DNA from: a virus
Taxonomy: Duplodnaviria > Heunggongvirae > Uroviricota > Caudoviricetes
DNA: 31,209 nt
Virus record (IMG/VR): IMGVR_UViG_3300029719_000311
Span: 1 to 31,209 of that record
Reading direction: 5' to 3' (one strand)
Under the pieces are notes generated by a model. The model ran no database searches. It was not told the origin of the DNA and saw only the letters and a program-made list of their open reading frames with translations. Shown in pieces: positions 4,588 to 31,209 of the stretch; within the stretch, counting starts at the first letter, position 1; the number at the start of each line of letters is the position of its first letter. The position numbers and the translations under genes are program-made.

Positions 4588-5022
4588 ATGTCCGGTAATA
4601 TCTATACGCTGTACAAATCCCACTGTGAAAATGTTGGAAAGTATCGGGGCATTGAAATCAGTGGGGTAGTGTCATCAGTCGAAATAAGCAAAGTTGAATC
4701 AAGGGCAACATTACTTACTCTTTTGGACCTTGTCTTACATGAGCACCGGAAGAAATTCGGCACTCCCTATAATCAGTTGAATGGGAAAAAGGCTCTGGTT
4801 CACCTTATTCTGATGAAGCATCACTGGATGCCAAAACAGATTAATGAGATGAAATTTGATGAACTTCTTCTTTCAATTCAGGATGAACTCACACTTGATA
4901 AAATAAGCGTAACCGCCCAGAAATTTTTAGATTATCGAGACTGGAGATCACAAATTCATCACTTTGATGATTTTGACGAAAATGAATGGGATCCTAATTT
5001 GTCTGCACAATATCTAAAGTAA
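4588..5022 (+). CDS. Hypothetical protein (144 aa), rightward gene at the sieB/N-equivalent position
   Basis: ATG preceded by AAAGGAAAAG; moderately AT-rich; orientation opposite to surrounding early-left genes; no recognisable motifs. Confidence 0.5.
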   Translation: MSGNIYTLYKSHCENVGKYRGIEISGVVSSVEISKVESRATLLTLLDLVLHEHRKKFGTPYNQLNGKKALVHLILMKHHWMPKQINEMKFDELLLSIQDELTLDKISVTAQKFLDYRDWRSQIHHFDDFDENEWDPNLSAQYLK

Positions 5023-6431: not shown

Positions 6432-6995
6432 ATGAGGCTAACCGTGGGTAAGCATCACTGGAAAATAGAAAAACAGCCTGAGTGGTACGTGAAAGCTGTC
6501 AGAAAAACTATCGCGGCGTTGCCGGGTGGTTACGCTGAAGCGGCTGACTGGCTCGATGTAACAGAAAACGCTTTATTCAACCGCCTTCGTGCAGATGGCG
6601 ATCAGATTTTCCCGCTGGGATGGGCAATGGTTTTACAGCGTGCTGGTGGCACTCACTTCATTGCTGATGCTGTGGCGCAGTCTGCAAATGGCGTCTTTGT
6701 GTCTCTTCCTGACGTCGAGGATGTGGACAACGCCGATATCAACCAACGCCTGCTGGAAGTCATTGAACAGATCGGCAGTTATTCAAAACAGATTCGTTCA
6801 GCAATTGAAGACGGTGTAGTGGAACCGCATGAGAAGACAGCAATTAACGATGAGCTGTACCTCTCAATTTCGAAGCTGCAGGAGCATGCAGCACTGGTCT
6901 ACAAAATCTTTTGCGTTTCAGAAAGTAGTGACGCCCGCGAGTGTGCAGCTCCGGGCGCCGTGGCGTGTCGTGACTGTGGAGAAACTAACGCATGA
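6432..6995 (+). CDS. Putative phage regulatory protein (CII/YdaT-like position), 187 aa
   Basis: ORF immediately downstream of cro-like gene; assignment by position only. Confidence 0.4.
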
Positions 6996-8772: not shown

Positions 8773-9425
8773 TGAGTAATAAATATTGCCAGGCGCTGGT
8801 GGAACTGCGGAACAAACCAGCCCATGAACTGAAGGAAGTGGGCGATCAGTGGCGCACGCCGGACAACATTTTCTGGGGAATTAACACCCTGTTTGGCCCG
8901 TTTGTTCTGGATCTGTTCACTGACGGTGATAACGCCAAATGTGCCGCGTATTACACGGCGGAAGACAACGCGCTGGCGCATTACTGGTCAGAACGTCTTG
9001 CGGAGCTTAAAGGTGCTGCCTTTGGTAATCCCCCGTACAGCCGCGCCAGTCAGCATGAGGGGCAATACATCACCGGCATGCGTTACATCATGAAACATGC
9101 CAGTGCCATGCGTGATAAGGGCGGGCGCTATGTTTTCCTGATCAAAGCTGCCACCAGCGAAGTGTGGTGGCCGGAAGATGCAGATCATATTGCTTTTATT
9201 CGCGGGCGTATTGGTTTTGAACTGCCTGTCTGGTTTATCCCGAAAGACGAGAAGCAGGTACCGACAGGAGCTTTTTTCGCTGGTGCTATTGCTGTTTTTG
9301 ACAAGACCTGGAAGGGACCGGCAATCAGCTACATCGGGCGCGATGAACTTGAGGCATGTGGTGAGGCGTTTCTGGCGCAGGTTCGCCAGCAGGCGGAAAA
9401 ACTGGTCAGGGAGATGGCGGCATGA
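8772..9425 (+). CDS. Phage DNA N6-adenine methyltransferase (Dam-like)
   Basis: Catalytic motif NPPY in ...AAFGNPPYS...; start at ATG overlapping upstream stop (TAATG), giving MSNKYCQALVELRNK... Confidence 0.8.
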   Translation: MSNKYCQALVELRNKPAHELKEVGDQWRTPDNIFWGINTLFGPFVLDLFTDGDNAKCAAYYTAEDNALAHYWSERLAELKGAAFGNPPYSRASQHEGQYITGMRYIMKHASAMRDKGGRYVFLIKAATSEVWWPEDADHIAFIRGRIGFELPVWFIPKDEKQVPTGAFFAGAIAVFDKTWKGPAISYIGRDELEACGEAFLAQVRQQAEKLVREMAA

Positions 9426-17024: not shown

Positions 17025-20000
17025 ATGGAACCCATATCAATTACAGTGGCAACTTATGTAGCAACTAAACTTATTGATCAATTCATCTCTCAAGAAGGAT
17101 ATGGTTGTATTAAGAAAGCATTATTCCCCCAAAAAAGATATGTGGATAGATTATATCAACTAATTGAAGAGACGGCAATTGAGTTTGAAGAAACATATCC
17201 AGTAGAAAGTGGAGCAATACCATTTTATCATTCCGAACCATTGTTTGAGATGTTGAATGAGCACATCTTTTTTAAAGAGTTCCCTGACAAAGAGATATTA
17301 TTAGACAAGTTCAAAGAATATCCAAGTATCACTCCCCCAACTCAACAACAACTCAGCCTTTTTTATGAGATGTTATCATTAAAAATCAATAATTGTTCGA
17401 AGTTAAAAAAGCTACATATCGAAGAAACGTATAAAGAAAAAATATTCGATATTAATGAAGAGCTCATTCAAGTCAAACTTATTTTACGGTCTATAGATGA
17501 GAAACTAACTTTTCACTTAAGTGATGATTGGTTAAATGAAAAAAATAGTCAAGCAATAGCTGACTTGGGAGGTCGATACACACCCGAACTCAACGTAAAG
17601 CTAGAAATAGCAGAGATATTTGATGGCCTCGGTAGAACTAATGATTTTTCTAAAATATTTTATTCGCATATAGATAGCTTTCTGGTCGCTGGAAAGAAAT
17701 TACATAGTTGCGATGTAATTTCCTCAGAATTATTTGAAATAAACCAGTCCTTAAAAGAAATTTCTGATATATATCAGGAGATTAATTTTTCTAAATTAGA
17801 TGAAATCCCTATAAATAAATTTAATAACTATGTTTCTAGCTGCCAGACAGCTATTGGCGGAGCGGTATCAATATTGTGGGAACTCCGAGAAAAGTCAGAG
17901 CAAGTAGGTGAAACCAAGCATTACAGTGATAAGTATTCATCTACTCTGCGAATGCTTCGGGAATTTGACTATGCGTGCAATGAATTACGTATATTCATTA
18001 ATTCAACAACAGTGAAGTTGGCTAACAACCCATTCTTACTTCTCGAAGGAAAAGCAGGAATTGGTAAGTCTCATTTACTGGCTGATGTGATTAAAAATCG
18101 AATTGCTTCTGGGTATCCTTCACTACTCATACTAGGGCAACAACTTACTTCAGATGAATCTCCATGGTCACAAATCTTCAAGAGATTACAGCTTAAAATC
18201 ACTTCTCGTGAATTCCTAGAAAAACTGAATTTATATGGCAAAAAAACAGGAAAAAGAGTCTTAGTTTTTATTGATGCTATTAATGAAGGTAATGGAAATA
18301 AATTCTGGAATGACAATATTAACAGTTTTGTCGATGAAATCAGATGCTTTGAATGGCTTGGTCTGATAATGTCAGTCAGAACAACATATAGAAATGTAAC
18401 AATTTCACATGAGAATGTTGTGCGAAATAATTTTGAAATTCATGAACATATTGGATTCCAGAACGTTGAGTTGGAAGCGGTTAGTCTATTTTATGATTAT
18501 TACAATATTGAGAGGCCTTCATCTCCTAACCTTAATCCAGAGTTTAAAAATCCTCTATTTCTTAAGTTATTGTGTGAAGGCATTAAGAAAAATGGTTTAA
18601 CCAAAGTGCCTGTTGGATTTAATGGGATTTCAAATATTTTTAACTTTTTAGTTGAAGGGGTAAATAAATCATTAGCATCGCCAAGAAAATATGCATTCGA
18701 TCCCAGTTTTCCTCTTGTTAAAGATGCTCTCAATGAAATCATAAAATTCAAATTAGAGATTGGTCGTAATAGTATTTCACTTAAAGATGCTCACTCAGTG
18801 GTTCAATCTGTAGTTAATGATTATGTTGCTGATAAAACCTTCCTCAGCGCCTTGATTGACGAAGGATTATTGACTAAAGGCATAGTGAGAAATGATGATA
18901 ATTCTACTGAGGAAGTAGTTTATGTGGCTTTTGAAAGGTTTGATGATCATTTAACTGTTAATTTTTTATTAAATGATGTTGAAAATATCGAAAGTGAATT
19001 TAAGCCTGATGGTCGTCTGAAAAAATATTTTCATGATGAATGTGATTTTTATATAAAATCGGGAATAGTAGAGGCGTTGTCTATTCAATTGCCAGAAAGG
19101 TATGAAAAAGAGCTTTATGAATTTCTGCCGGAGTTCAGCAATAATCTTAAATTACTAGAAGCCTTTATTGATAGCTTGATATGGCGCGATATTAAGGCTA
19201 TTGATTTCGAAAAAATTAGACCTTTCATCAATGAACATGTTTTTAAATTTAAAGATAGTTTTGATCATTTCCTCGAGGCAGTGATCTCTATTTCAGGTTT
19301 AGTTGGCCATCCCTTTAATGCTAATTTCTTGCATGATTGGCTAAAAGATTATTCTTTGGCAAATCGAGATTCGTTTTGGACTACAGAACTTAAATATAAA
19401 TATAGTGAAGACTCAGCATTTAGGCATCTAATCGATTGGGCATGGGCCAGAACAGATAAAAGCTTTGTTTCGGATGAGTCAATCGAGCTAGTTGCAACTA
19501 GTTTATGCTGGTTTTTAACTTCTAGTAACCGAGAACTTCGAGATTGCTCAACTAAGGCTTTAGTGAGTTTACTCGAGCCAAGAATTCCTGTATTGAGAAA
19601 AATAATTGATAAGTTTTATGGTGTAAATGATCCTTACGTTTGGGAAAGAATATTTGCAGTTGCATTAGGCTGTACATTGCGAACTGATAATATTAAAGAA
19701 CTAAAATATTTAGCCGAAACTGTTTACCAAAAGGTATTTTGTTCTAAGTATGTGTATCCAAATATATTACTTAGAGATTATGCTAGAGAGATTATTGAAT
19801 TTGCTAATCATCTTGGATTGGAACTTGAAAGCATTGAATTATCCAAGACTAGACCACCCTACAACAGCATTTGGCCTGACAAGATTCCTTCAAAAGAGGA
19901 ACTAGAGTCCCTTTATGATAAAGAACCTTATCGGGAACTCTGGAGCTCTATTATGGAAGATGGTGACTTTTCACGATATACTATTGGAACAAATTATAAT

Positions 20001-21479
20001 CATTCTGATTGGTCTGGTTGCAAGTTTAATGAAACCCCTGTTGACCGTAAGCAAGTTTTTAAAACTTTCAAATGTAAACTAACTGATCAACAAAAAGACT
20101 TGTATGATGCCACAGATCCTTTCATTTATGATGATAAATGCGAAGGAATTAAATTTGGTCGTGTGGTCGGTAGAAAATCACAGGAAGAAATAAAGGCGAG
20201 CAAGAAATTATTTAAGAATTCATTGTCATACGATCTGTTAAGTGAGTTTGAAAATGAAATAGAGCCATACCTGGATCATAATAATAATCTGCTGGAAACT
20301 GATAAACACTTTGATCTTCGACTAGCTCAACAATTTATATTCAATCGTGTTATAGAGCTTGGTTGGGATCCGGAGAAGCATGGTAATTTTGACCAACAAA
20401 TAGGAACTGGACGTGGACGTAGAGAGGCATTCCAAGAACGGATTGGTAAAAAATACCAATGGATTGCTTATTATGAATACATGGCAAGGCTAGCCGATAA
20501 TTTTACTCGTTTTGAAGGTTATGGTGACGAACGAAAGGAAAATCCATACCAAGGGCCATGGGAGCCTTACGTAAGAGATATAGATCCCACTATCTTACTT
20601 AAAGAAACTGGAACGAAAAAAATAAGCAATAAAGAAATGTGGTGGCTTAATGATGAAGTGTTTGATTGGACTTGCTCTAATGAAGACTGGGTTAAAAGTT
20701 CTACTACTATAACTAATTCATATGCTTTTATTGAAGTTAAAGATGATAATGGTGATGAATGGATAGTATTAGAAAGTCATCCATCATGGAAAGAACCAAA
20801 AATTATTGGAAACGATGATTGGGGGCACCCACGAAAAGAGGTTTGGTATCAGATCAGAAGTTATATCGTTAAAGTTGAAGAATTTGAAAATTTTAGATGT
20901 TGGGCAATAGCTCAAGACTTTATGGGCAGGTGGATGCCGGAATGTACTGATAGATACCAATTATTTAATAGGGAGTACTATTGGTCCGAAGCATTTAAGT
21001 CTTTTAAATCAGATTATTATGGTGGATCTGACTGGACTTCGGTAACAGACCGGGAGTCTGGAGCTAAGATAGCTGATGTTAGTGTCACTTCGATTAATTA
21101 TTTGTGGGAAGAGGAGTTCGACAAATCAAAAATAGAAACTTTGAATTTTTTGAAGCCTAGTAACTTAATCTTTGAAAAGATGGGATTAAAAAGTGGGGAA
21201 GTAGAGGGTAGCTTCAATGATGAAAATGGAACTATGGTTTGCTTTGCAGCTGAAGCTGTATATGCTTCAAAGCCGCATCTACTTGTTAAAAAAGAACCAT
21301 TTTTAACAATGTTAAGGGACAATGGTTTTGAAATCGTTTGGACATTATTAGGTGAAAAGGGCGTTATAGGGGGCTCACTCATATCAAGTCATCATTATGG
21401 TCGACAGGAGTTTAGTGGAGCATTTTATTATGAAGACAGTCAGCTAACAGGAAGTCATAAAACTAGCTTTACGAGATAA
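17025..21479 (+). CDS. Large P-loop NTPase with NACHT/STAND-like motifs (1484 aa); candidate antiphage defence protein
   Basis: Walker A GKAGIGKS (18048..18071), Walker B VLVFIDAINEG (18258..18290), downstream IMSVRTT sensor-1-like motif; about 330-aa N-terminal and about 1050-aa C-terminal helical extensions; low GC versus neighbours; located between tfa and attR. Confidence 0.6.
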   Translation: MEPISITVATYVATKLIDQFISQEGYGCIKKALFPQKRYVDRLYQLIEETAIEFEETYPVESGAIPFYHSEPLFEMLNEHIFFKEFPDKEILLDKFKEYPSITPPTQQQLSLFYEMLSLKINNCSKLKKLHIEETYKEKIFDINEELIQVKLILRSIDEKLTFHLSDDWLNEKNSQAIADLGGRYTPELNVKLEIAEIFDGLGRTNDFSKIFYSHIDSFLVAGKKLHSCDVISSELFEINQSLKEISDIYQEINFSKLDEIPINKFNNYVSSCQTAIGGAVSILWELREKSEQVGETKHYSDKYSSTLRMLREFDYACNELRIFINSTTVKLANNPFLLLEGKAGIGKSHLLADVIKNRIASGYPSLLILGQQLTSDESPWSQIFKRLQLKITSREFLEKLNLYGKKTGKRVLVFIDAINEGNGNKFWNDNINSFVDEIRCFEWLGLIMSVRTTYRNVTISHENVVRNNFEIHEHIGFQNVELEAVSLFYDYYNIERPSSPNLNPEFKNPLFLKLLCEGIKKNGLTKVPVGFNGISNIFNFLVEGVNKSLASPRKYAFDPSFPLVKDALNEIIKFKLEIGRNSISLKDAHSVVQSVVNDYVADKTFLSALIDEGLLTKGIVRNDDNSTEEVVYVAFERFDDHLTVNFLLNDVENIESEFKPDGRLKKYFHDECDFYIKSGIVEALSIQLPERYEKELYEFLPEFSNNLKLLEAFIDSLIWRDIKAIDFEKIRPFINEHVFKFKDSFDHFLEAVISISGLVGHPFNANFLHDWLKDYSLANRDSFWTTELKYKYSEDSAFRHLIDWAWARTDKSFVSDESIELVATSLCWFLTSSNRELRDCSTKALVSLLEPRIPVLRKIIDKFYGVNDPYVWERIFAVALGCTLRTDNIKELKYLAETVYQKVFCSKYVYPNILLRDYAREIIEFANHLGLELESIELSKTRPPYNSIWPDKIPSKEELESLYDKEPYRELWSSIMEDGDFSRYTIGTNYNHSDWSGCKFNETPVDRKQVFKTFKCKLTDQQKDLYDATDPFIYDDKCEGIKFGRVVGRKSQEEIKASKKLFKNSLSYDLLSEFENEIEPYLDHNNNLLETDKHFDLRLAQQFIFNRVIELGWDPEKHGNFDQQIGTGRGRREAFQERIGKKYQWIAYYEYMARLADNFTRFEGYGDERKENPYQGPWEPYVRDIDPTILLKETGTKKISNKEMWWLNDEVFDWTCSNEDWVKSSTTITNSYAFIEVKDDNGDEWIVLESHPSWKEPKIIGNDDWGHPRKEVWYQIRSYIVKVEEFENFRCWAIAQDFMGRWMPECTDRYQLFNREYYWSEAFKSFKSDYYGGSDWTSVTDRESGAKIADVSVTSINYLWEEEFDKSKIETLNFLKPSNLIFEKMGLKSGEVEGSFNDENGTMVCFAAEAVYASKPHLLVKKEPFLTMLRDNGFEIVWTLLGEKGVIGGSLISSHHYGRQEFSGAFYYEDSQLTGSHKTSFTR

Positions 21480-21862
21480 AAATGAATCTCAGAGCTGAAT
21501 ATATAAGTAGTATTAGAAACCGGGTTATACTTAAGAAATCAATCTTAAGTGTGGCAGTCGAATGGTAGCTAATATGCTAGCGGCGCTAATGCCTGTTTGT
21601 TGCTCATAACAGGCATTCACTTTAGTTATGGCAGAAAAGTATACATGCTGGGTTGGGAAAGTGTGAAAGAAAGGAAGATTGCTGCGCCGTTTGTCGTCAC
21701 GTTTATCTTCATTGGCTATGCAAGTCGTAATAAAAGGTGGGACAAAACTGAGACACATAAAGCCTCGCAATGGCTTGCAAGGCTTTACATGTTTTGATGT
21801 GGTGGGACGTGTGAGCGCAGTGTTGATGGGGTAATGCTTTGAATTAGAAGCGGATTCTTATA

Positions 21863-21909
21863 ATTCGTAATGCGAAGGTCGTAGGTTCGACTCCTATTAT
21901 CGGCACCAT
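21863..21909. repeat. att core, right copy (attR of element 1 / attL of element 2)
   Basis: 47 bp identical to 1399..1445 (partial thrW 3' end ATTCGTAATGCGAAGGTCGTAGGTTCGACTCCTATTATCGGCACCAT). Confidence 0.9.
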
Positions 21910-22072
21910 CACCTAGTTTTCCCAAGTCAACCCACATCAACAAAATCATTTAAAAACATATATATTACGTTGTTTTCATACGTTTGAGGTCAACCCTTGT
22001 CTCTTGAAATCAACACGCGGTTGGGGGCACAATCAGGGGCATGTTCTGTTCGATCTAGGAAATGTGCCCCCA

Positions 22073-23263
22073 ATGATGCTGAATGCCCGCAAGGTTGAAG
22101 CTGCGAAAGGAAAAGAGAAGAGCTACAAGCTGTTTGATGGAGGTGGCCTATACCTTCAGGTCGAACCTAATGGCTCGCGTTACTGGCGTATGAAATACCG
22201 TTTTGCTGGTAAAGAGAAACGATTGTCCTTTGGTGTTTATCCAACAGTCACACTTGCTGATGCCAGACAAAAACGAGAAGACGCGAAGAAACTACTCGCA
22301 GCAGGTGAAGATCCCGGCGAAGTCAAAAAAGCCAAAAAGCAGGCTTTAAATGCAGCGAGTGAGACACTTAACCCATTCAGAGAAGTGGCGTTAGAGTGGC
22401 ACAAAATGAAATCACCCAAATGGTCTGAGGGCTATGCTTCCGACATCATTGAGGCATTCGAGAAAGACATTTTCCCGCATATTGGGCACAGACCTATAGC
22501 TGATATTCAGCCCCTTGAACTGCTTGAAGTTCTGAGGTTGATAGAAGCTCGAGGCGCTATGGAGAAAGCGAAGAAAGTCCGTCAGCGATGCGGTGAAGTT
22601 TTTCGCTATGCCATCGTAACGGGTAGGGCAATCTACAATCCGGCACCGGATCTTGCCAGTGCGATGCAAGGACATGAAGCAGTCCACTATCCATTCCTCA
22701 AAGCCAACGAACTACCGGAGTTCTTTAATGCCCTTAATTCTTATTCAGGAAGTCCAATTGTATTGTTGGGGGCGCATTTACTTATCCTGACAGGTCTACG
22801 AACTGGAGAACTACGAGCAGGTGAGTGGCGAGAGGTGGATTTTGATAATGCGGTGTGGGAGATCCCAAAAGAACGTATGAAAATGCGTAGGAGCCATATT
22901 GTCCCGTTGTCAAAACAAGCATTATCCCATCTCAAAAGTTTGAAAGAACTAACTGGGAACTACCCGCTGATGTTCCCTGGACGCAACGATCCCAGCAAAT
23001 TTATGAGTGAAGCAAGCATTAATCAGGTGTTTAAACGTATTGGATATGCAGGGCGTGTTACGGGGCATGGTTTCAGGCATACGATGAGTACAATCCTACA
23101 TGAGAAAGGATTTAACAGCGCTTGGATTGAAACCCAGCTTGCTCATTCGGACAAAAACTCTATTCGTGGAATTTATAACCATGCCCAATATCTCGAAGGG
23201 AGAAGAGAAATGATGCAATGGTATGCTAATTATTTATCTGAGCAAATTGGTACTCATAAATGA
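22073..23263 (+). CDS. Tyrosine integrase, P4-type
   Basis: ...KEKSYKLFDGGGLYLQVEPNGSRYWRMKYRFAGKEKRLSFGVYPTVTLADARQKREDAKKLL... N-terminal arm-binding pattern of P4-family integrases; C-terminal ...GHGFRHTMSTILHE... catalytic region; true start probably ATG at 22073/22076 rather than ORF start 22004. Confidence 0.9.
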   Translation: MMLNARKVEAAKGKEKSYKLFDGGGLYLQVEPNGSRYWRMKYRFAGKEKRLSFGVYPTVTLADARQKREDAKKLLAAGEDPGEVKKAKKQALNAASETLNPFREVALEWHKMKSPKWSEGYASDIIEAFEKDIFPHIGHRPIADIQPLELLEVLRLIEARGAMEKAKKVRQRCGEVFRYAIVTGRAIYNPAPDLASAMQGHEAVHYPFLKANELPEFFNALNSYSGSPIVLLGAHLLILTGLRTGELRAGEWREVDFDNAVWEIPKERMKMRRSHIVPLSKQALSHLKSLKELTGNYPLMFPGRNDPSKFMSEASINQVFKRIGYAGRVTGHGFRHTMSTILHEKGFNSAWIETQLAHSDKNSIRGIYNHAQYLEGRREMMQWYANYLSEQIGTHK

Positions 23264-24084
23264 ATATTTTAAAAATTAATAATACTGATTCTCTGCTCAG
23301 AGATTACTACCAGTTGGATGAAGCTTCAGAAAAAATTGGTTGTAGTGAAAAGGATATACTCTGGTTTGCCAGAGAACGAGATGTAGAGCTATGCATGGAA
23401 TTCCATGATGATGAGTATGATGTTTCATGTGGTTTGAAGATTGATGGTCAAATAGATGAGTTCTTATCTAATCTGAAATATTTACCACGAGATAGAAATG
23501 GCAATATTATGTTGTCAGACTTAAGTTCTATAAGAATCCCTGATGAAGATAATTTAATTGATAAAAATGGTTTTATTCGATGCTTCATATCCGGTTTATG
23601 GGCTGTTGATTATGAATATAAAGATCTGTTAGTTAAGCATGAGGGGCAACCGGATTCCTGGCCTATTCATTTTCTACTGGCGGGTACGCCTAATATAAAT
23701 TGTAAGGTAATTCTTTATGTAAATTATGATGAAAAAGAAAATTATTATCTTTTTGAGGTTTTGTGGATTACAAAGGTACAGATTCAAAAATTCATTGATA
23801 TAGTCTTATGCGAACAAAAGCGGATAAAAAACGCCAATAAATATAAATCACAATCTGAGGCGCAAAAACAAAAACATGCTGTTCCTCGAGCTGAAATACT
23901 CATGGCTATTATTTCGCTCTATCATCGTGATATGAGGCTAAGAAGAGAGAGTCCAGCAGCGATAGCTGATTATCTTTTTCAACATGCCAGTGAGTTCTGG
24001 CCTAAGACCGGAGAACCGCCTTTGAGCTATGATACTGTTGTTAGTTTGCTACGTAGTTGCATGAAAAACATTAAGTTTAACTAA
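23260..24084 (+). CDS. Hypothetical low-GC cargo protein (274 aa), translationally coupled to integrase
   Basis: ATGA overlap with int stop; strongly AT-rich relative to int; no recognisable motifs. Confidence 0.5.
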   Translation: MNILKINNTDSLLRDYYQLDEASEKIGCSEKDILWFARERDVELCMEFHDDEYDVSCGLKIDGQIDEFLSNLKYLPRDRNGNIMLSDLSSIRIPDEDNLIDKNGFIRCFISGLWAVDYEYKDLLVKHEGQPDSWPIHFLLAGTPNINCKVILYVNYDEKENYYLFEVLWITKVQIQKFIDIVLCEQKRIKNANKYKSQSEAQKQKHAVPRAEILMAIISLYHRDMRLRRESPAAIADYLFQHASEFWPKTGEPPLSYDTVVSLLRSCMKNIKFN

Positions 24085-24209
24085 ATATTAACAATTGTTG
24101 TGGCTAATGATTTTGAATTTTTTTCATTAGTCACATTTTTCTCATTTATAACCTATGTTTTAATTTTCCGTGTTGAAGCCAATAGACTTAGATAAACGGA
24201 GAATGATGA

Positions 24210-24500
24210 ATGTTATCTAAACATGATAATACTACTTTGCAACGACCTTCAATGGATTCTCTGATCGATATGAAGTTTATTACTTCCGATTGTTTATTAA
24301 GTGATAAATGGATTTATCGATTGATTTCTCTGAATCGCTTTCCAAAACCTATAAAAATAGGTCGGATGTCACGATGGCGCGCTGCTGATTATTATAAGTG
24401 GCGAGATGGGTTTGAAGAAAACTCAGGTCAACAGTTTGAGGGGATGAGAAATAAGGCAAGAGCAATTAATAAAGGGAATAGATTATCACCTACTCCCTAA
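24210..24500 (+). CDS. AlpA-family phage regulatory protein (Vis/excisionase-like)
   Basis: ...LISLNRFPKPIKIGRMSRWRAADYYKWRDGF... fits the AlpA pattern (FPKP.K.G..S.W); GGAGA RBS 8 nt upstream. Confidence 0.55.
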   Translation: MLSKHDNTTLQRPSMDSLIDMKFITSDCLLSDKWIYRLISLNRFPKPIKIGRMSRWRAADYYKWRDGFEENSGQQFEGMRNKARAINKGNRLSPTP

Positions 24501-24706
24501 GCCTTAATTGATAGTTAGTAATATTTAACTGATTAGCCTTTAGGGTCAATCCCGCGTGATTGGAGTTCTTTGCGTAAAATTCTTTTAATCCAAGTTGCCA
24601 ACGCGCTATCTCCATCTTTGCGCATTTCGTTTTCGAGTTGCAACCTAAAATCGTCGGTAAGACGCATTTGGAATGGTGGAGAACGTTTCTCTTGTGGTGT
24701 TGACAT
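24491..24706 (-). CDS. Putative Arc/Mnt-like ribbon-helix-helix regulator (71 aa); not in the supplied ORF track
   Basis: Hand-translated minus-strand ORF MSTPQEKRSPPFQMRLTDDFRLQLENEMRKDGDSALATWIKRILRKEL...; PPFQMRLTDD resembles the Arc N-terminal beta-strand; start codon lies within one of two GGTAATTACC palindromes. Confidence 0.4.
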
Positions 24707-24746
24707 GGTAATTACCCTAGAATATGATGACTACATGGTAATTACC
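24707..24746. promoter_or_regulatory. Two 10-bp palindromes GGTAATTACC spaced 30 bp apart (candidate operators)
   Basis: CATGGTAATTACC repeated at 24704..24716 and 24734..24746, overlapping the RHH gene start. Confidence 0.4.
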
Positions 24747-24837
24747 ATTGTAAGTATAGTTCGCTTGTAAAAGCAATGCCCGATTGTGCGGGAACACAAA
24801 TCGGGCATTTAACCAACCGTTATAAGAGGTAACGAAG

Positions 24838-25014
24838 ATGGCTAAACAGAAGTGTACCTGGTTATTTGCGGCGATCAACCGCAGTCAACGCAATGCCCGT
24901 CCTGTGATGTTAAGGATCACCGCAGATAACGAGCGGTCAGCGCGGCGCAGACTTGCCCCGGACTATGTACTGAGCTTTGCCGGGCGCATTCCCTGCGGAG
25001 GTGAACATGCGTAA
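24838..25014 (+). CDS. Small protein (58 aa), Icd-like position in a P4-like element
   Basis: Hand-translated MAKQKCTWLFAAINRSQRNARPVMLRITADNERSARRRLAPDYVLSFAGRIPCGGEHA; AAGAGG RBS; overlaps the next gene start by 8 nt. Confidence 0.4.
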   Translation: MAKQKCTWLFAAINRSQRNARPVMLRITADNERSARRRLAPDYVLSFAGRIPCGGEHA

Positions 25015-25366
25015 TTATCCGCATCCCGGCGAACGCTGGCAGCATGAACGTGGCTGGACGGTCACGATTATCCGATTAATAGAAGCCTCGCCCTCTGTGG
25101 CGCTGGTTAATCCTGAATTCAGCTGTGAAGTGCTGATACGTCATGACAGCGACAACCAGCTTTCTTCCTGCCCTCTGGCATGGTTTGAACAGCGATATAC
25201 GCGCCTGTTTGATGTACCGCTCTTTAAGCCTGCACCAGCTCCTGCAGGCGGTAGTGGTTCCGGCCCGCTGACACTGCATCCGTCTGTGCTATTTATCCGC
25301 TGGCGGGAGCGTAGCATATGGCGTTCTGCTGAGCCTGATGACGGTCACTATTCAAAGTTTCTCTGA
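25007..25366 (+). CDS. Hypothetical protein (119 aa)
   Basis: ATG preceded by GGAGG at 6-nt spacing; GC-rich; function unknown. Confidence 0.45.
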   Translation: MRNYPHPGERWQHERGWTVTIIRLIEASPSVALVNPEFSCEVLIRHDSDNQLSSCPLAWFEQRYTRLFDVPLFKPAPAPAGGSGSGPLTLHPSVLFIRWRERSIWRSAEPDDGHYSKFL

Positions 25367-25602
25367 CACAATACCGCTGAAAACGGAGTAATCCACGATG
25401 AATATTTCAAACGGGCACAACGGTGCTCAGGGCCACACTTTGCCTGAAAAACACAATACCTGCTGCCCTCCACTGATGGCAAACTCCAGACAACCATTCG
25501 CCCGCCAGAGATGAATCCCCGCAGGCTCTATGTCTTCAACAGCGAGGTGCCGGGTTAAGGCTTTGCGTGAGTCTTATTTATTAAGGGTAACAGGTGAAAC
25601 AG

Positions 25603-25780
25603 GTGGAACAACCGTATTTTACAGGGCTGAACCTGTTCCACCTTCTGAAATAGTGAGGTGGAACAGATGTAACGCCAGCCAATCCGCTGTTCCACCTTGT
25701 TACCCGCGATGTTTCACCGGTGCAGTGTATATAAATGTCTTATAAAACAAAGCTGTAACACATGTTTCACCTGTTCCACC
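25603..25780. repeat. Iteron cluster TGTT(C/T)CACC in both orientations (P4 ori/crr-like)
   Basis: About 8 copies (25603, 25612, 25633, 25657, 25688, 25710, 25763, 25772) flanking an AT-rich core; P4 ori/crr use TGTTCACC octamers bound by the alpha primase. Confidence 0.55.
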
Positions 25781-25868
25781 GCATCAGGGACATAAAGCAG
25801 ACTGAAACAGAGGGCATTTTTATCTGGCTGGCTTTCATAGCCACGTCTGAATAACCGCAAGCGCCCGT

Positions 25869-25924
25869 TGTGCCAGCCACCACACACTGAACACCGATAG
25901 TGTGCTTGTGTCAGCCACGACACA
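25869..25924 (+). promoter_or_regulatory. Candidate Ogr/Delta-activated late promoter (two TGT-N12-ACA dyads)
   Basis: TGTGCCAGCCACCACACA at 25869..25886 and TGTGTCAGCCACGACACA at 25907..25924, 35-90 bp upstream of the sid-like ATG. Confidence 0.4.
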
Positions 25925-25958
25925 ATTGACGTAACGAACCAACCCGACAGGAGAAGTC

Positions 25959-26702
25959 ATGAACAATACCGCAGTAAATAACAACCTTTCCACTTTTCCG
26001 GCTGTAACGCAGCGGGCACTGGAAACCATGAACACAGCCAGAAACGCATGGCTTGAAGCACGTCGTCAGCAGAAAGCGGCAGCGGATAATATTGCGACAA
26101 TCCGCCAGCGTCGCGCTGAAATGGAAGCCACGACGAACACACTGAATGAGGAGTGGCGCACGCTGTTTCGTGAAAGTCAGGGCGTGGTCTCAAAGGAAAT
26201 GAAAAAACTGCGCACGGAAATTGCGCTGGGACGAGAAACGCTTGAGGATTTTGATGAGCTGCTGGCGGCTCAGGAAAGCGAAAATGCACTTTTGCCGCAG
26301 AAAGCTGCAGAATTAGCCGGAAAGTATATCCACGCGCATAACATTCTTGTGGATATTCGCGCAAAACAAATCTGGGAGGATTTTATGCAGTCGCATGGAA
26401 AAGCGCTTATTCAGACGCTGAGCCTGCTTAAATCCACAATGGGCCGGGAAGCCAGTGCCGTTGTGGGTGTGGTGAATTCAGTTAATGACCCGGACACAGT
26501 GCTGAAAGACTTTATTCATAAACATATCACCAGACCGGCTCTGGCTAACGATGCGATGCCTGAGCAGGACCCGGTGTTTAAACTGGCGGGAGTTGCCCCG
26601 GATTATGCGGCGCGTCTGGATTTCAGTAATCAACTCTCTCCGGCAGCTATGCATAAAATTAAGGTTCGTCAGGAACTTGCTGAGAAGGAGAAAGCAGTAT
26701 GA
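25959..26702 (+). CDS. Sid-like capsid size determination protein (247 aa)
   Basis: Helical 247-aa protein (P4 Sid is 244 aa), first gene of the operon ending in an ogr/delta gene; AGGAG RBS. Confidence 0.5.
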   Translation: MNNTAVNNNLSTFPAVTQRALETMNTARNAWLEARRQQKAAADNIATIRQRRAEMEATTNTLNEEWRTLFRESQGVVSKEMKKLRTEIALGRETLEDFDELLAAQESENALLPQKAAELAGKYIHAHNILVDIRAKQIWEDFMQSHGKALIQTLSLLKSTMGREASAVVGVVNSVNDPDTVLKDFIHKHITRPALANDAMPEQDPVFKLAGVAPDYAARLDFSNQLSPAAMHKIKVRQELAEKEKAV

Positions 26703-27250
26703 CGGCCCGAGGCACGCCTGACCAGGCACTTACCAGTTTTCGGAATGCCCGCATTCTGTGGGCCGGACATAATGAGAGCCGAAAAGCCGTTGAACAACAG
26801 ATAACATCTCTCCTCGCTGCCACAGAAAAACCAGCAGATTATGCCCGACAGCTCGAATTACTGCGGGAACGTCTGGATGTGCTGAAATGGCAAATTAACT
26901 GTGCTGCGCGCGAATGCATTTACTCGCAGCATTTACTGATGGAGGCCTGCACAGAAGCCGCTCTCAGCAATTTTATGCAGGCGAATGGGGCAGCCCTGAC
27001 ATCTGCACTGGCTCCGTTCCTGAAGGGGCGCGGAGGGGTTGACGTTGCGTCCCGTATATTACGCAGTGCTCTGGTTCGCCAGCTGGCAATAACACCGCCT
27101 GAAATTGCTGGGGATTATCGTGAGATCCTGGATGAATCCGGTTTGATGCCTGACCCCGGGATGATTCGTGATTGCCAGGGTTCTTACACCCCGGCACAAC
27201 ATCTGCGTTTTCAGCAACGCCTGAATGACATTAACGATATACAGGAGTGA
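26699..27250 (+). CDS. Psu-like polarity suppression protein (183 aa)
   Basis: ATGA coupling to sid-like gene; size and operon position match P4 psu (190 aa). Confidence 0.5.
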   Translation: MTARGTPDQALTSFRNARILWAGHNESRKAVEQQITSLLAATEKPADYARQLELLRERLDVLKWQINCAARECIYSQHLLMEACTEAALSNFMQANGAALTSALAPFLKGRGGVDVASRILRSALVRQLAITPPEIAGDYREILDESGLMPDPGMIRDCQGSYTPAQHLRFQQRLNDINDIQE

Positions 27251-27255
27251 TATTA

Positions 27256-27528
27256 ATGGCACTTAAATGTCCGGAATGCGGTACAGTTGCACACGCCAGA
27301 ACAGCAGCCTATGAAGCTCCGTCAGTTAAACGCTCGTGGTATCAGTGCCAGAATCTGGAATGTTCCTGCACATTTACGGCACTGGAGAGTGTGGATAAGA
27401 TAATCATGAAACCCCGGCGCAATGAACAGGAACCAGACAAATCACAACCCCCGGTAAAACAACAGCAAACGCTCAATCGCTATGGCTCCGCGTCAAAACT
27501 GTCAAGCCGTCAGCAGATTCCTGTCTGA
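27256..27528 (+). CDS. Ogr/Delta-family zinc-finger late transcription activator
   Basis: MALKCPECGTVAHARTAAYEAPSVKRSWYQCQNLECSCTFTALESV matches the Ogr pattern C-P-x-C-x4-HART...Y-x-C-Q-N-x-x-C-S-x-T-F; start at ATG after AGGAG rather than track GTG at 27247. Confidence 0.85.
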   Translation: MALKCPECGTVAHARTAAYEAPSVKRSWYQCQNLECSCTFTALESVDKIIMKPRRNEQEPDKSQPPVKQQQTLNRYGSASKLSSRQQIPV

Positions 27529-27549
27529 TTAGAAAAAAACGCCCACGTA

Positions 27550-27575
27550 ATCCCGGTCGAGTACCGGGATTTTTA
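27550..27575 (+). terminator. Rho-independent terminator after the delta gene
   Basis: ATCCCGGT-CGAGT-ACCGGGAT hairpin followed by TTTT. Confidence 0.6.
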
Positions 27576-27863
27576 ACACCTTTTCCCTGGCTGGCCTGAG
27601 AGCGTATGAGTGCATGTCTATGGCGCATGAAAATGCATGAGTCTTATGCACCCTTTTTGAGGCGAAAACCTTTGTGTGGTGGTATCTGAGACGATTTATG
27701 GCATGCATGAAAACCAGTCTGTTAAGCGAAGCGGGCAGGCGTGCGGGGCTGCCCGCGTAAGGGCGTTGAATGGTATAACTATGGCACGGTTACCGCATGT
27801 TTTGAGCTGTAATCGAAGTTATGAAAATTACTATATAAAGCGGTCGCTGTTGTGGAGATACGA

Positions 27864-27892
27864 TTGCGGGAAGTGATGGAAAGAGCTATAAA
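27864..27892 (+). promoter_or_regulatory. Candidate sigma70 promoter for the RT operon
   Basis: TTGCGG-N17-TATAAA about 30 bp upstream of the RT1 ATG. Confidence 0.3.
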
Positions 27893-27922
27893 AAGTACAG
27901 AGGATAGTTTAATGAGGGTATT

Positions 27923-29200
27923 ATGAACCGTCAGCCGTTTACTTCAGCAGCACTTAAACGAAACTTAAGTGAAAGTGAGAAGGCTTATTATTTTAAAAAA
28001 AATAATGTTGCTGAGTTAGAATCATTAATTAGTGATGCCGTTTTAATTGCTAATGAGAATTTTCGCTCTGGTGTGAGTGTAAAGAAACTAAATATTAAGG
28101 GACGCTGCGTTTACACTGCTTCATGTTTGAAGGAAAAAATAATACTTAGACATTGCAATGCAAATTTAAAATGCCTTGAATCGCTTCGTCCCAAACAACG
28201 AAATACAATAATTAGTGAGCTTAAAATTTATTTGGAAGAAGGTACTCCATTCAAAATATATCGTTTGGATATAAAGTCTTTCTTTGAATCAATTGATTTA
28301 CCGCAGCTTTTTCAGCTCTTACATAACGAAACACGACTGTCTAGACATACAAAAAATTTGCTAGAATGGTATCTTAAATCGTGTGAAAGGCTTCACTCTT
28401 CGAAAGGATTACCTAGAGGGTTAGAAATTAGTCCTATGTTATCAGAATTGTACTTGGCACAATTTGATAATAGTATTCATAGGCATCCAGAAGTATTTTA
28501 TTATTCAAGATTTGTAGATGATATGGTAATCGTTTCAAGTGGTTGTGAATGTGAAGCGTCCTTTATGGAATTTATACAAGATGTATTACCAAAGGGATTG
28601 GCTTTAAATAAAAATAAATTAAAAATATCTCCATGCATACCAAAGAGAAGTAAGGGTTTAAATAAACAGGATAAATTGCTTCATGAATTTGACTTTCTAG
28701 GGTACTCGTTTTCTATAATAGACACACCTTTGAGCAAAGATGGTGAGATTAATAGCTGTTACAGAAAGGTTGTTGTTAATTTATCTAAATCTCGCCTGAA
28801 GAAAATTAAAACAAGAATAGCTAGGTCTTTCTACTCTTATCATATTAATGGTGATTTTAAACTATTGCTAGACAGGATTTCTTTTTTGACTAGTAACAGG
28901 GATTTAAATCGCAAAATAAAATCGTTAAGTTCTTTAGAAAAAAGCAAGATAAGTACAGGTATTTATTACAGTAATGCGAAGTTAGATGTTGACTCCATAT
29001 CCCTAAAAAAATTAGATGACTTTTTGCTATATTGTGTGCAATCTAATACTGGGCGTTTGAATAGTGTTGCAAAAAAACCTTTTAATTTGAAGCAAAAAAA
29101 AGAACTGCTAAGAAATAGTTTTAGAAAAGGCTTTGTGGATAGAGTATATAGAAAGTATAACTTTAAGCGCTATACTGAGATTACAAAAATATGGTTATAA
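27923..29200 (+). CDS. Reverse transcriptase 1 (425 aa), defence-associated RT (UG/Abi-like; DRT3 component by inference)
   Basis: Canonical RT motifs: YRLDIKSFFESID (motif 2), LPRGLEISPMLSELYL (motif 4), FVDD catalytic box at 28511..28522 (motif 5), FDFLGYSF (motif 7); very low GC. Confidence 0.85.
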   Translation: MNRQPFTSAALKRNLSESEKAYYFKKNNVAELESLISDAVLIANENFRSGVSVKKLNIKGRCVYTASCLKEKIILRHCNANLKCLESLRPKQRNTIISELKIYLEEGTPFKIYRLDIKSFFESIDLPQLFQLLHNETRLSRHTKNLLEWYLKSCERLHSSKGLPRGLEISPMLSELYLAQFDNSIHRHPEVFYYSRFVDDMVIVSSGCECEASFMEFIQDVLPKGLALNKNKLKISPCIPKRSKGLNKQDKLLHEFDFLGYSFSIIDTPLSKDGEINSCYRKVVVNLSKSRLKKIKTRIARSFYSYHINGDFKLLLDRISFLTSNRDLNRKIKSLSSLEKSKISTGIYYSNAKLDVDSISLKKLDDFLLYCVQSNTGRLNSVAKKPFNLKQKKELLRNSFRKGFVDRVYRKYNFKRYTEITKIWL

Positions 29201-31209
29201 AGAAAAACATTAAACTTGATAAGAAAGATTATCTCAGGGCTTTACTATGTGATACACTGCCCGGTGATTGTCCAATTATTTTTTCAAATGATGGCTTATA
29301 TATAAACTTAACAGAATATGATAGAGTTTGTAATGATTTGTTACATTTTACTCCGGTTTCTTCTTTCTTAAAAAAAATAGTTAACCCTAATTTAGACTCT
29401 TCTATTAGTGTCGCAGATCGCCACCGAGAAAAGAAGAAACAAAGCTCCCCATTTGGCTATTGTATAGTAAAAGATGCCTTTAGCCAAAGACATCTTTCTT
29501 TAATTCACCCAAGATCTCAAATTAATTATTCGGAATTTTATAAAACATACTCATCCGTTATCACATTAAATACTTTAAAAAGTAATTTTTCTATTCGCTA
29601 CCCACGTAAGGTCGCTAACTCTTTCTTTTTATATGAAAATAATGCTTTGGAAAAATATAAAGGGGAAGATATCGAAACAACAAAGGATGAGTTAATGAGG
29701 AAATATTCATCCTCTTATTTTAGTTATGGCGGTTTCAACAGGATATATAAACTATTTCAAAGTAAGATGTTTATTGAGCTTGAGAAAAGATTCTCGGTGA
29801 TGTGGATGTTAGATGTATCACATTGTTTTGATAGCATATATACGCATTCGGTTTCTTGGGCATTAAAAAATAAATCATATATCAAAAAACATGTTAAACA
29901 CAGCAATCAATTTGGACAAGAATTAGATACACTGATGCAACGTAGCAATAATAATGAAACAAATGGAATACCTATTGGTTCAGAGTTTAGCAGGGTTTTT
30001 GCAGAATTAATATTTCAGCGAATTGATTGCAATATTGAGTCATGCCTTCTTAGTGAGCATGGATGGGTTAATAATAAAGATTATGTTATATTGAGATATG
30101 TAGATGATTTTATTGTTTTTTGTAATGGTGAGTCAAGTGCCGAAGTTATTACAAAAATAATTAATGTGAAGTTAAATGAATATAATCTACAATTAAATGT
30201 AAACAAGCTTAAGAAGTATTCTAGGCCATTTTGCACTAGCAAGACAAGTTTGATTGTCAAAGTTAATGAATTAATTCGCAATTTAGAAATTAAACTGTAT
30301 GAAAAACGTGATAGTGGCTTTACTTTAAATAAAATAAGAAGTAAGCATGATTTAAAGATATATGTAATTAATCATGTCAAGTCTATATGCATTGAAAATC
30401 AAGTGTCTTATTCTGATGTTTCATCATATATAATATCATCTCTTTCCAAAAGATTAATATCAATAATTGATATATTACGAGTTCAAGAAAATGAAGATGA
30501 TGTAGATGTAAAAAAAAGGATTAAGGACTTAATTTTCACAATAACCGATATTATGTTGTTCTTTTTCAGTGTTAACCCAACTGTTTCATCATCTTATAAA
30601 TTATCAAAAACAATGGTTGTTGTTAATAACTATTTGAATGAAATATCTAGTGACTATAGTAGTATTTTTATGACTACGTTAGTGAATGCTGCGGAAAACA
30701 TTAATTTTGGTGAGAATGATAATGGGCTGTTTATTGATGATTTCATTTCAATTGAAAAGGTTAATTTAATCTTGGCTGCTACTTTTTTTGGAGATAATTA
30801 TCTTATAAGTGACAGTTTTTTTCATGGAGTTATACATAAAAAGAAATTGGACTACTTTACTATAATCTCACTGCTATTCTATTTTAGAAACAGAAGATCA
30901 TTCCGAAAATTGAAGTGTATAATAGAGGGTGAAATAAAGGAAATATTAAGTTCTAATATGGATTTGCTGCAATCATCGGAAAAGGCACATTTATTTTTGG
31001 ATGTCATGTCATGTCCATTTGTCTCAATAGAGACAAGGCGTTTTTTATATAGAAAATATCTCAAGAGCTATGAGCCAAAGCTGAACAGAAGTCATCTGGA
31101 GATTGAGAATGATTTGCAATCTCTGCTTCAAATATATTGGTTTGTCAAGTGGGATGAGTTAGATATTGTGAAAATGATTGAGAAAAAAGAATTGAAAGAA
31201 AGCTATTAA
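29191..31209 (+). CDS. Reverse transcriptase 2 (672 aa) with long C-terminal extension (UG/Abi-like; DRT3 component by inference)
   Basis: MLDVSHCFDSIYTHSVSWAL (motif 2), NGIPIGSEFSRVFAELIF (motif 4), YVDD catalytic box at 30097..30108; overlaps RT1 by 10 nt; stop codon is the last triplet of the window. Confidence 0.85.
   Translation: MVIKKNIKLDKKDYLRALLCDTLPGDCPIIFSNDGLYINLTEYDRVCNDLLHFTPVSSFLKKIVNPNLDSSISVADRHREKKKQSSPFGYCIVKDAFSQRHLSLIHPRSQINYSEFYKTYSSVITLNTLKSNFSIRYPRKVANSFFLYENNALEKYKGEDIETTKDELMRKYSSSYFSYGGFNRIYKLFQSKMFIELEKRFSVMWMLDVSHCFDSIYTHSVSWALKNKSYIKKHVKHSNQFGQELDTLMQRSNNNETNGIPIGSEFSRVFAELIFQRIDCNIESCLLSEHGWVNNKDYVILRYVDDFIVFCNGESSAEVITKIINVKLNEYNLQLNVNKLKKYSRPFCTSKTSLIVKVNELIRNLEIKLYEKRDSGFTLNKIRSKHDLKIYVINHVKSICIENQVSYSDVSSYIISSLSKRLISIIDILRVQENEDDVDVKKRIKDLIFTITDIMLFFFSVNPTVSSSYKLSKTMVVVNNYLNEISSDYSSIFMTTLVNAAENINFGENDNGLFIDDFISIEKVNLILAATFFGDNYLISDSFFHGVIHKKKLDYFTIISLLFYFRNRRSFRKLKCIIEGEIKEILSSNMDLLQSSEKAHLFLDVMSCPFVSIETRRFLYRKYLKSYEPKLNRSHLEIENDLQSLLQIYWFVKWDELDIVKMIEKKELKESY

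Follow-up and report, generated by a model that had tools for sequence, protein, structure and literature searches.

The repeat cluster at positions 25585-25780 is, with a probability of about 0.8, the vegetative origin of a P4-like satellite integrated at thrW, which has lost its initiator by a recent deletion of 3,173 bp. The window, i.e. the whole stretch of DNA that was analysed, is 31,209 bp long, and the satellite within it has int, alpA-like, sid-like, psu and delta genes all present. The alpha gene is absent because the deletion, flanked by a microhomology, removed the initiator gene. The absence of alpha is very probably owed to the ordinary decay that mobile elements undergo and does not point to a new kind of system.

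Results

The repeat cluster

The nonamer TGTTYCACC has ten exact matches in the window when both strands are counted, while dinucleotide-preserving shuffles give a mean of 0.52 ± 0.69 and a maximum of 3. This confirms that the cluster is real and non-random. Eight of the ten matches are located within 188 bp, three on the minus and five on the plus strand. The other two (14779 and 14902) are found within a tail-fibre gene and are unrelated to the cluster. Three degenerate copies, GGGTAACA (25585-25592), GATGTAACG (25666-25674) and TGTTACCC (25698-25705), bring the total to 11. The exact copies thus span 25593-25780, and the span becomes 25585-25780 when GGGTAACA is counted. Decay after the deletion was considered for the copy at 25666-25674 and rejected, since the same sequence is present in an intact relative.

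A sequence-only reading of this DNA had described about eight TGTT(C/T)CACC repeats in both orientations with an AT-rich core, and the count and positions of the exact matches agree with this description. Its starting point of 25603, in contrast, cuts off the first copy together with the initial base of the next one; the true start is 25593, or 25585 with the degenerate copy. The outer tandem pairs of iterons form an inverted repeat with arms 25593-25610 and 25763-25780, the pairs pointing toward each other. Six exact iterons are found to the left of the AT-rich core and two to the right.

Genetic context

The features of the satellite are presented in Table 1. An intact tRNA-Thr gene thrW is located at 1369-1444 and a copy of its 3' end forms attL, which makes the satellite the distal member of a thrW tandem array. 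The proximal member is a lambdoid prophage remnant carrying Avs2. The RefSeq start of the integrase corresponds to 22073. No primase/helicase ORF is found between int and the sid-like gene, and the small AlpA-like, RHH and Icd-like genes reside there instead, both as the sequence-only reading had proposed (Pfam, PHROG and RefSeq for the small genes). The Phage_AlpA match of the AlpA-like gene falls just under the curated cut-off, and RefSeq labels the product an HTH regulator. The homologue of the Icd-like gene in P4 is the C-terminal part of the 'cI ORF', and the ORF at 24977-25366 is kept upstream of the initiator gene in relatives. Judged by its sequence, the strong promoter ahead of these genes is likely the early promoter of the icd..alpha operon.

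The two TGT-N12-ACA boxes upstream of the sid-like gene, which we take to be Ogr/Delta activator sites of the P2/P4 consensus, are both kept in Pantoea relatives. Their spacing is consistent with the -55 and -18 arrangement of P4 Psid. The possible cos site has weak similarity to the P4/P2 cohesive-end region and is placed as in P4, on the way from the late operon to the defence hotspot. A homologue of epsilon was not detected by BLASTP here or in the intact relatives. An Rfam scan of 21500-31209 returned no C4 or isrK immunity RNA; its sole match, to symR at 24772-24843, was below threshold with 31.6 bits where the gathering score is 61. Searched as DNA among 50,697 phage records, 24200-27600 matched only a Pasteurella phage, over an irrelevant 212 bp; P4 is too divergent at the DNA level to surface in such a search.

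Table 1. Features of the satellite and its putative origin (window coordinates)
Feature	Position	Strand	Remarks
attL	21863-21908	+	46-nt exact copy of the 3' end of tRNA-Thr(CGT) thrW
P4-family tyrosine integrase	22004-23263	+	Pfam Arm-DNA-bind_3, Phage_int_M, Phage_integrase; 43% identity to P4 Int
274-aa hypothetical gene			between the integrase and AlpA-like genes
AlpA/Vis-like excisionase-regulator	24210-24500	+	Pfam Phage_AlpA E=4e-4; PHROG 66/2790
Small Arc/RHH-like gene (weak support)	24533-24706	-	PHROG 228 E=3e-3
Strong sigma-70-like promoter	24700-24728	+	TTGACA-17-TATGAT, 11/12 consensus matches
Icd-like gene	24838-25014	+	PHROG 1743 E=2.5e-16; 54% identity to P4 cI ORF
Conserved satellite ORF	24977-25366	+	119 aa from RefSeq start 25007; PHROG 30862 E=3e-77
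orf94 5' remnant	25398-25460	+	21 codons; past the junction out of frame, stop at 25514
Deletion junction	25456-25460		5-bp microhomology ATACC; base-by-base comparison with DETEC-E223
Initiator 3' remnant	~25461/25463-25558	+	last 31 codons and stop, LPSTDGKLQTTIRPPEMNPRRLYVFNSEVPG; stop 25556-25558
Iteron cluster, putative ori	25585-25780	none	8 exact TGTTYCACC and degenerate copies
Nonamer starts	25593(-), 25602(-), 25634(+), 25657(-), 25688(+), 25710(+), 25763(+), 25772(+)		exact matches
AT-rich core, presumed DNA-unwinding element	25719-25762		44 bp, 68% A+T; separates copies six and seven
Late promoter of the sid operon	25869-25924	+	two TGT-N12-ACA boxes, 25869-25886 and 25907-25924 (direct repeat)
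sid-like capsid-size gene	25959-26702	+	PHROG 6165 E=9e-93; 24% identity to P4 Sid
psu	26699-27250	+	Pfam Psu E=1e-44
delta, Ogr/Delta zinc-finger activator	27247-27528	+	Pfam Ogr_Delta E=7.5e-16
Possible cos site (tentative)	27726-27751		blastn match to the P4 cos junction, 83% over 24 nt
Drt3a	27923-29200	+	defence cargo, satellite hotspot; Pfam RVT_1; RefSeq drt3a
Drt3b	29191-31209	+	defence cargo, satellite hotspot; Pfam RVT_1; RefSeq drt3b

The deletion

The section 21800-31209 was compared by megablast with 5,426 complete E. coli genomes. Relatives of about 100% identity match in two pieces, which extend over 12,583 bp there and 9,410 bp in the query. In the genome of DETEC-E223 (locus L001), the extra DNA contains a 94-aa ORF (orf94), a DUF5375 protein homologous to P4 cnr/orf106, and an 890-aa protein with TOPRIM and DUF927 domains. 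The stop codon of this last protein, the initiator, lies 35 bp upstream of the first iteron.

Exactly 3,173 bp (L001 9662-12834) are missing in the window, comprising the cnr-like gene and most of orf94 and of the initiator gene. Both breakpoints, 9661/9662 and 12834/12835 of L001, are flanked by the pentamer ATACC, which is present in a single copy at the junction. The initiator remnant, once translated, agrees in every residue with the C-terminus of the DETEC-E223 protein of 890 aa.

A query of 321 bp centred on the junction matched 334 complete E. coli genomes. It is contiguous in one of them, MLI105, while in the remaining genomes its two halves are 3.2 kb apart. Of 331 genomes, 326 contain the iteron region at full length, defined as at least 80% of the query, and a TOPRIM+DUF927 gene adjoins it in every full-length match listed. 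Across the satellite, the window differs from DETEC-E223 by 2 SNPs. From MLI105 it is set apart by 3 SNPs and by its upstream neighbour, and it is thus not MLI105 itself. The deletion allele is therefore carried by at least two strains, and it is very young. The 38-aa fusion peptide that arose at the junction was looked up by exact sequence; no record was found, which gives no count of further carriers. The iterons are the same as in the intact copies, which fits a very recent deletion and is neutral on whether they are still used.

Iteron clusters in relatives

Relatives of the 890-aa protein (57-100% identity) were collected from Enterobacterales, one genome per species, giving 55 loci. The comparison of downstream regions covers the 51 loci, from many genera, with usable sequence, i.e. 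that of DETEC-E223 and 50 loci of other Enterobacterales. An iteron cluster is found downstream of the initiator gene in 50 of them. In 47 loci it consists of 5-12 copies of a repeated 7-mer core and starts about 25-45 bp past the initiator stop; in three others it is located about 1.1 kb downstream. The initiator gene of the sole locus without a cluster is truncated. The repeats, whose absence from homologous satellites the sequence-only reading had named as evidence against itself, are therefore present there.

The positions of the copies past the stop codon are also kept: a tandem at about +26 to +45, one copy near +78, copies near +100 and +109, further copies at about +130 to +160 and, after a gap, at about +200 to +220. 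The sequences at these conserved positions fall into about ten motif classes, including TGTTCCACC, TGTTACACC, TGTTACCCC, TGTTACCCA, TGTTACCAG, TGTTACCAC, TGTTCCCAC, TGTATCCA and TGTAACC, together with the TACATGTA type. Seven loci of the TGTTCCACC class were aligned with four Pantoea loci of the TGTTACACC class. In this alignment of 11 sequences, nearly every copy is changed at the same fifth position between the two classes. In one group of the alignment, 5 of 72 iteron columns (7%) are variable compared with 36 of 134 spacer columns (27%, p=4e-4); in the other group, the corresponding values are 2 of 72 (3%) and 47 of 134 (35%, p=1.5e-8). The AT-rich core remains AT-rich in both groups despite divergence of its sequence.

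The iterons trail the initiator gene whichever gene comes next: sid, delta, or neither. At the sequence level, the synteny of the cluster and the concerted switching of its copies are the pattern expected of an initiator and its cognate origin.

The missing initiator

The initiator of the intact relative DETEC-E223 (890 aa, WP_001471075.1) contains the Pfam domains Zn_Ribbon_Prim, Toprim_3 and DUF927. Its residues 3-322, comprising the zinc ribbon and the TOPRIM primase, align with P4 alpha at 38% identity with an hhalign probability of 100%. P4 alpha has an SF3 helicase of the D5 type and, at its C-terminus, a winged-helix domain that binds the origin. According to Pfam, DUF927 takes the place in the initiator where P4 alpha has D5_N, DUF5906 and Pox_D5, and this region of P4 alpha was not detected in the initiator by Pfam, hhalign, or sequence and fold searches of the PDB. 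In a profile search against PDB sequences, the initiator matched SaPIbov1 Rep (8tch, E=2.7e-17) and the SCCmec helicase Cch (5dgk, E=7.7e-16).

The protein was modelled with AlphaFold from 18 sequences (mean pLDDT 65, pTM 0.36, ATPase core 514-684 below 50), and the model was used only for the secondary structure of the C-terminus and for a coarse fold search. Foldseek gave 8tch and 5dgk as the best matches, followed by the DnaG and T7 gp4 primases. The P4 origin-binding domain was not retrieved by this whole-chain search, which is a weak test at a pTM of 0.36. In the model, the last 60 residues form two helices and then a beta hairpin, which is predicted to be a helix-turn-helix with a wing.

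Substitutions were compared between initiators in pairs that are not independent of one another. In close pairs (at least 94.5% identical) with differing iterons, 10-44% of the substitutions are located in residues 840-890, compared with 0-10% in same-iteron pairs having at least 17 differences and 5.7% expected from length. Between the TGTTCCACC and TGTTACACC initiators there is no enrichment in this section (about 5-6%), and the five changes found there are all within residues 860-878. The predicted fold and these substitutions are suggestive, and the C-terminal region of the initiator probably reads the iterons. The variable N-terminal region 90-210 was also considered as a locator of the iteron reader and is uninformative, being hypervariable in all pairs, including those with the same iterons.

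Discussion

Comparison with P4

It is useful to compare the cluster with the two sites of P4 (NC_001609). The P4 octamer TGTTCACC occurs in ori1 (9310-9413), just upstream of sid, and in crr (4291-4590), just downstream of alpha; all 11 exact octamers of P4 are located in these two sites, and P4 has no nonamer. The satellite has eight nonamers in its cluster and a single stray octamer elsewhere. Both systems have a near-identical TGTT-CACC core, in both orientations around an AT-rich stretch. The cluster is located upstream of sid, like ori1, and in the intact element downstream of alpha, like crr. It resembles both sites in position because the alpha operon here is codirectional with sid and abuts it, unlike the divergent operon of P4. 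A cnr homologue precedes the initiator gene and the primase domain is homologous (38% over 320 aa), and homologues of int, cnr, sid, psu and delta belong to the satellite as they do to P4.

The differences concern the origin and the protein that would serve it. The repeat is a 9-mer compared with the 8-mer of P4, with one extra central base. A single cluster is found in place of two sites 4.5 kb apart: the eight nonamers of DETEC-E223 form one cluster, a relaxed 7-mer scan of the satellite in the window finds the same eight, and there is no second cis site. The helicase and C-terminal parts of the initiator have no detectable relation to P4 alpha. When P4 ori1 and crr were compared by blastn with 25501-26000, homology did not extend beyond the tandem iterons. 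By these sequence characters, the cluster is not a member of the P4 ori1/crr type, as it has neither the octamer, nor the bipartite layout, nor the cognate initiator. The description of the repeats as 'P4-type' iterons in the sequence-only reading thus holds in part: they are origin-type iterons of a P4-like satellite, but with a nonamer, a single cluster and a DUF927 initiator.

Comparison with SaPIs, PICIs and alpha-less satellites

The Rep proteins of SaPIs bind 6-12 iterons directly 3' of rep through a C-terminal winged helix; in the SaPI ori, opposed iterons flank a central AT-rich region on both sides, and Rep loads itself (PMC9371898). In Gram-negative PICIs, int, alpA and pri are codirectional and an ori with two sets of iterons around an AT-rich region follows pri-rep (PMC6092414; PMC10111431). 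For the E. coli PICI EcCICFT073, the cloned pri-rep-ori module replicates a plasmid and deletion of pri-rep cuts transfer about 100-fold (PMC6092414).

The cluster has many features in common with the origins of SaPIbov1, SaPI1, SaPI5 and EcCICFT073. It is placed directly 3' of the initiator gene, at 35 bp, and its iterons (8 exact, 11 in total) form two sets around the AT-rich core with the outer pairs opposed. The initiator of the relatives, whose gene is deleted in the window, is of the DUF927/SaPI Rep/Cch kind, with a predicted C-terminal DNA-reading domain and a lineage-specific iteron sequence. The codirectional order int-alpA-...-pri-ori is that of the Gram-negative PICIs. In place of the capsid or terS genes of a PICI, the element has the hijack module of P4 (sid, psu, delta, a Delta-dependent late promoter and a probable P2-type cos), and its iterons are 9-mers compared with the penta- or hexamers described for SaPIs. 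By analogy, the layout of the cluster is that of a SaPI/PICI origin, set inside a P4-like hijack cassette.

The core set of P4-like satellites consists of int, psu, delta, sid and alpA together with epsilon and alpha, and the alpha-less 'Type B/C' variants of Moura de Sousa and Rocha are frequent in Enterobacterales (PMC8628076). Like these variants, the satellite has int, alpA, sid, psu and delta without alpha and without a detectable epsilon. With epsilon sought by BLASTP alone, five of the seven components are present here and six in the relatives, roughly corresponding to 'Type C' and 'Type B', respectively (PMC8628076). Unlike the catalogued variants, the loss is traced here to a single very recent deletion with known breakpoints, and the cis origin is retained. 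In contrast to the frequency of such variants, loss of alpha is rare in this lineage (1 of 334 complete genomes).

Alternative explanations

The sequence-only reading had offered two explanations for the missing gene: an alpha beyond the window, after the RT cargo, or a replication-defective satellite. The window ends exactly at the stop of Drt3b, so that the right end of the element is out of view and an intact satellite with alpha past this point could be imagined. The relatives DETEC-E223 and L002 (99.97-100% identical, 0-3 SNPs from the window across the satellite) make this extremely improbable. In both, a thrW-derived attR core is found about 390 bp past the Drt3b stop, followed by a LysR fragment (a pseudogene) and the chromosomal paoDCBA genes, and no alpha gene is found between Drt3b and these genes. 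Moreover, the initiator gene is directly upstream of the iterons in about 330 genomes, and its last 31 codons are still in place here. The evidence favours the second explanation, since the initiator gene is deleted, and the satellite would be defective as a result. That the deletion is an artefact of assembly is contradicted by MLI105, an independent complete genome with the same junction. The idea that the cluster reflects chance or a host factor, for instance as an array of DnaA boxes, likewise has a negligible probability. The nonamer agrees with the DnaA box TTATCCACA at 6 of 9 positions, but none of the eight iterons fits TTWTNCACA at one mismatch or fewer. One such match is located in the AT-rich core, matches of this kind are not enriched in the window, and the iteron classes of relatives drift from the DnaA consensus. 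Chance is opposed by the count of ten nonamers against 0.5 expected.

Two other readings accept the repeats as binding sites and assign them to other proteins. According to one, they are operators for AlpA, the Arc-like protein or Delta at the late sid promoter and no origin is present. Small DNA-binding regulators are indeed encoded nearby, and the cluster precedes the sid start by 90-370 bp and adjoins the Delta boxes. However, its distance is fixed to the initiator stop and not to sid, and it is also found in loci that lack sid, psu and delta or that have delta as the first gene; this persistence behind the initiator gene, regardless of the next gene, argues against operators of the sid promoter. 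The Delta boxes are separate and conserved independently, close initiator variants differ in their motif, their substitutions being enriched in the initiator C-terminus, and 8-12 sites around an AT-rich core are the architecture of an origin (PMC9371898, PMC6092414). This reading is very unlikely. It is still less probable that the cluster is a true P4-type ori1/crr recognised by the alpha protein of another P4 in the cell. The nonamer is the P4 octamer with one central base added, and the position and the shared gene set would agree with such a use. This added base, however, alters the spacing of TGTT to CACC; the satellite has no cluster of octamers and P4 no nonamer, with no homology beyond the repeats. 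Furthermore, the gene that co-occurs and co-varies with the iterons encodes a DUF927 protein, unlike the helicase or the origin-binding region of P4 alpha.

Proposed mechanism and significance

The preferred reading, an origin orphaned by deletion of its initiator gene, suggests the following mechanism. In the intact satellite, the early operon would run through the icd-like gene, orf119, orf94 and the cnr-like DUF5375 gene and end in the alpha-like gene of the 890-aa initiator. This protein would combine a zinc-ribbon and TOPRIM primase of the P4-alpha/DnaG type, a DUF927 helicase of the SaPI Rep/SCCmec Cch type, and a C-terminal helix-turn-helix plus wing. Following the SaPI Rep model, the C-terminal domain may read the iterons and hexamers of the initiator may load on both sides of the AT-rich core. 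The core would then melt, the helicase would load itself, and the fused primase would prime synthesis. It is from sequence and analogy that we infer the binding of the iterons by this domain, the firing of the origin and the replication defect.

The deletion between the two ATACC pentamers took out the initiator along with the cnr-like gene and the greater part of orf94, and the origin is left intact at 35 bp from the surviving stop. Functions that appear to be retained are integration and excision (int, alpA), late activation and capsid hijack (delta, sid, psu), a probable cos and the DRT3 cargo. Without its initiator gene, the satellite would be unable to start its own replication, and it could be amplified only with the help, in trans, of an initiator that has the same iteron specificity.

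It is conceivable, although unlikely, that the orphan origin is still used. Since int, alpA, delta, sid, psu, the probable cos and the iterons are intact, the element could parasitise sibling satellites. It would then be a satellite of a satellite, firing only with the TGTTCCACC-specificity initiator of a sibling that is co-resident or incoming; alternatively, the array might titrate this initiator and so exclude siblings. Such titration, if true, would be a form of sibling exclusion akin to plasmid incompatibility.

The orphan origin leaves the current understanding of satellite replication unchanged. For annotation, it means that an alpha-less P4-like satellite can have arisen in one step, by deletion, and does not have to represent a functional variant of its own, and comparison of near-identical genomes settles which of the two is present. 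The initiator family, in which a P4-type primase appears fused to a helicase of the SaPI-Rep type, is widespread in Enterobacterales. The iterons occupy fixed positions and fall into approximately ten classes, and candidate residues for specificity are located among the final 50 amino acids of the protein. These data form a natural specificity series, which could guide work on origin recognition and on incompatibility between satellites. The satellite still carries DRT3, and the loss of replication functions may be one route to the chromosomal fixation of defence cargo.

Iteron classes in the relatives

About ten iteron classes, that is, lineage-specific repeat motifs, are found at conserved positions after the initiator gene in the relatives' loci across the Enterobacterales (L004-L058). 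Different iterons occur even in very close initiator pairs that are 95-98% identical, for example, L031/L020, L026/L029 and L024/L025. The substitutions between such close pairs are concentrated in residues 840-890 of the 890-residue initiator. On the evidence of these sequences, the pairs appear to constitute a natural specificity-switch series.

In three loci, those of Klebsiella spallanzanii (L040), Scandinavium (L048) and Apirhabdus (L057), the iteron cluster lies about 1.1 kb downstream of the initiator stop codon, presumably displaced by an inserted gene. These clusters contain 10-13 copies with a GGGAACA/GTGGGAA core, read as TGTTCCCAC. The displacement shows that an origin adjoining the initiator gene is not obligatory.

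Three degenerate iteron-like sites are present in the window (see the table). The sequences GGGTAACA and TGTTACCC show no variation across both iteron classes of the alignment. The sequence GATGTAACG is a decayed iteron copy; six loci from other genera with the same iteron class have GGTGGAACG at the matching site, and the decayed form is already present in the intact satellite copy of E. coli DETEC-E223. An exact TGTTCCACC occurs twice more on the minus strand, at 14779-14787 and 14902-14910, 123 bp apart in the prophage tail-fibre gene. This pair is probably a piece of an internal coding repeat with no relation to the origin.

Features of the satellite and its surroundings at thrW
Feature	Position	Remarks
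Prophage int	1459-2622	
Prophage CI-like gene	5435-6109	
Prophage CII-like gene	6432-6995	
Prophage O-like gene	7340-8281	
Chimeric 600-aa ORF	10953-12755	N-terminal half like phage HNH endonuclease, C-terminal half like lambda J-type tail fibre
Avs2 (AVAST type 2 defence protein)	17025-21479	1,484 aa; low-GC gene; annotation in relatives
Near-consensus sigma-70 promoter	24700-24728	TTGACA-17-TATGAT; ~110 bp upstream of icd-like gene
Degenerate iteron-like sites	25585-25592, 25666-25674, 25698-25705	
Two TGT-N12-ACA boxes	25869-25886, 25907-25924	upstream of sid; 38 bp apart
Candidate cos site	27726-27751	GGCGTGCGGGGCTGCCCGC; AAGCGGGC just before
Drt3a and Drt3b reverse transcriptases	27923-31209	hotspot between delta/cos and attR

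Regulatory sites and candidate cos site

The sigma-70 promoter is likely the early promoter of the operon whose last gene was the deleted initiator. Just downstream of it, a sub-threshold Rfam match to symR was found on the minus strand (24772-24843). Both TGT-N12-ACA boxes are kept in the Pantoea relatives despite diverged surroundings, and the arrangement of the pair is consistent with a late promoter activated by Delta, of the kind represented by P4 Psid.

The candidate cos site shows weak similarity, 83% over 24 nt, to the cohesive-end region of P4/P2, and its position, past the late operon and ahead of the hotspot, is that of cos in P4. The site may possibly be cos for a P2-like helper with ends unlike those of P2.

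Prophage remnant and defence genes

In the chimeric ORF of the thrW lambdoid prophage, residues 3-254 match the endonuclease and residues 247-599 the tail fibre. The tail module is complete at the matching position in DETEC-E223, and the ORF has the appearance of a scar left by a large deletion within the prophage. Together with the deletion in the satellite, this scar places deletions in both members of the thrW array.

The segment encoding Drt3a and Drt3b has a GC content of about 30%, compared with about 50% in the satellite core. The Avs2 gene has the tail-fibre assembly gene of the prophage on one side and the thrW repeat on the other. The satellite is therefore flanked by two defence systems, Avs2 at the integrase end and DRT3 at the cargo end.
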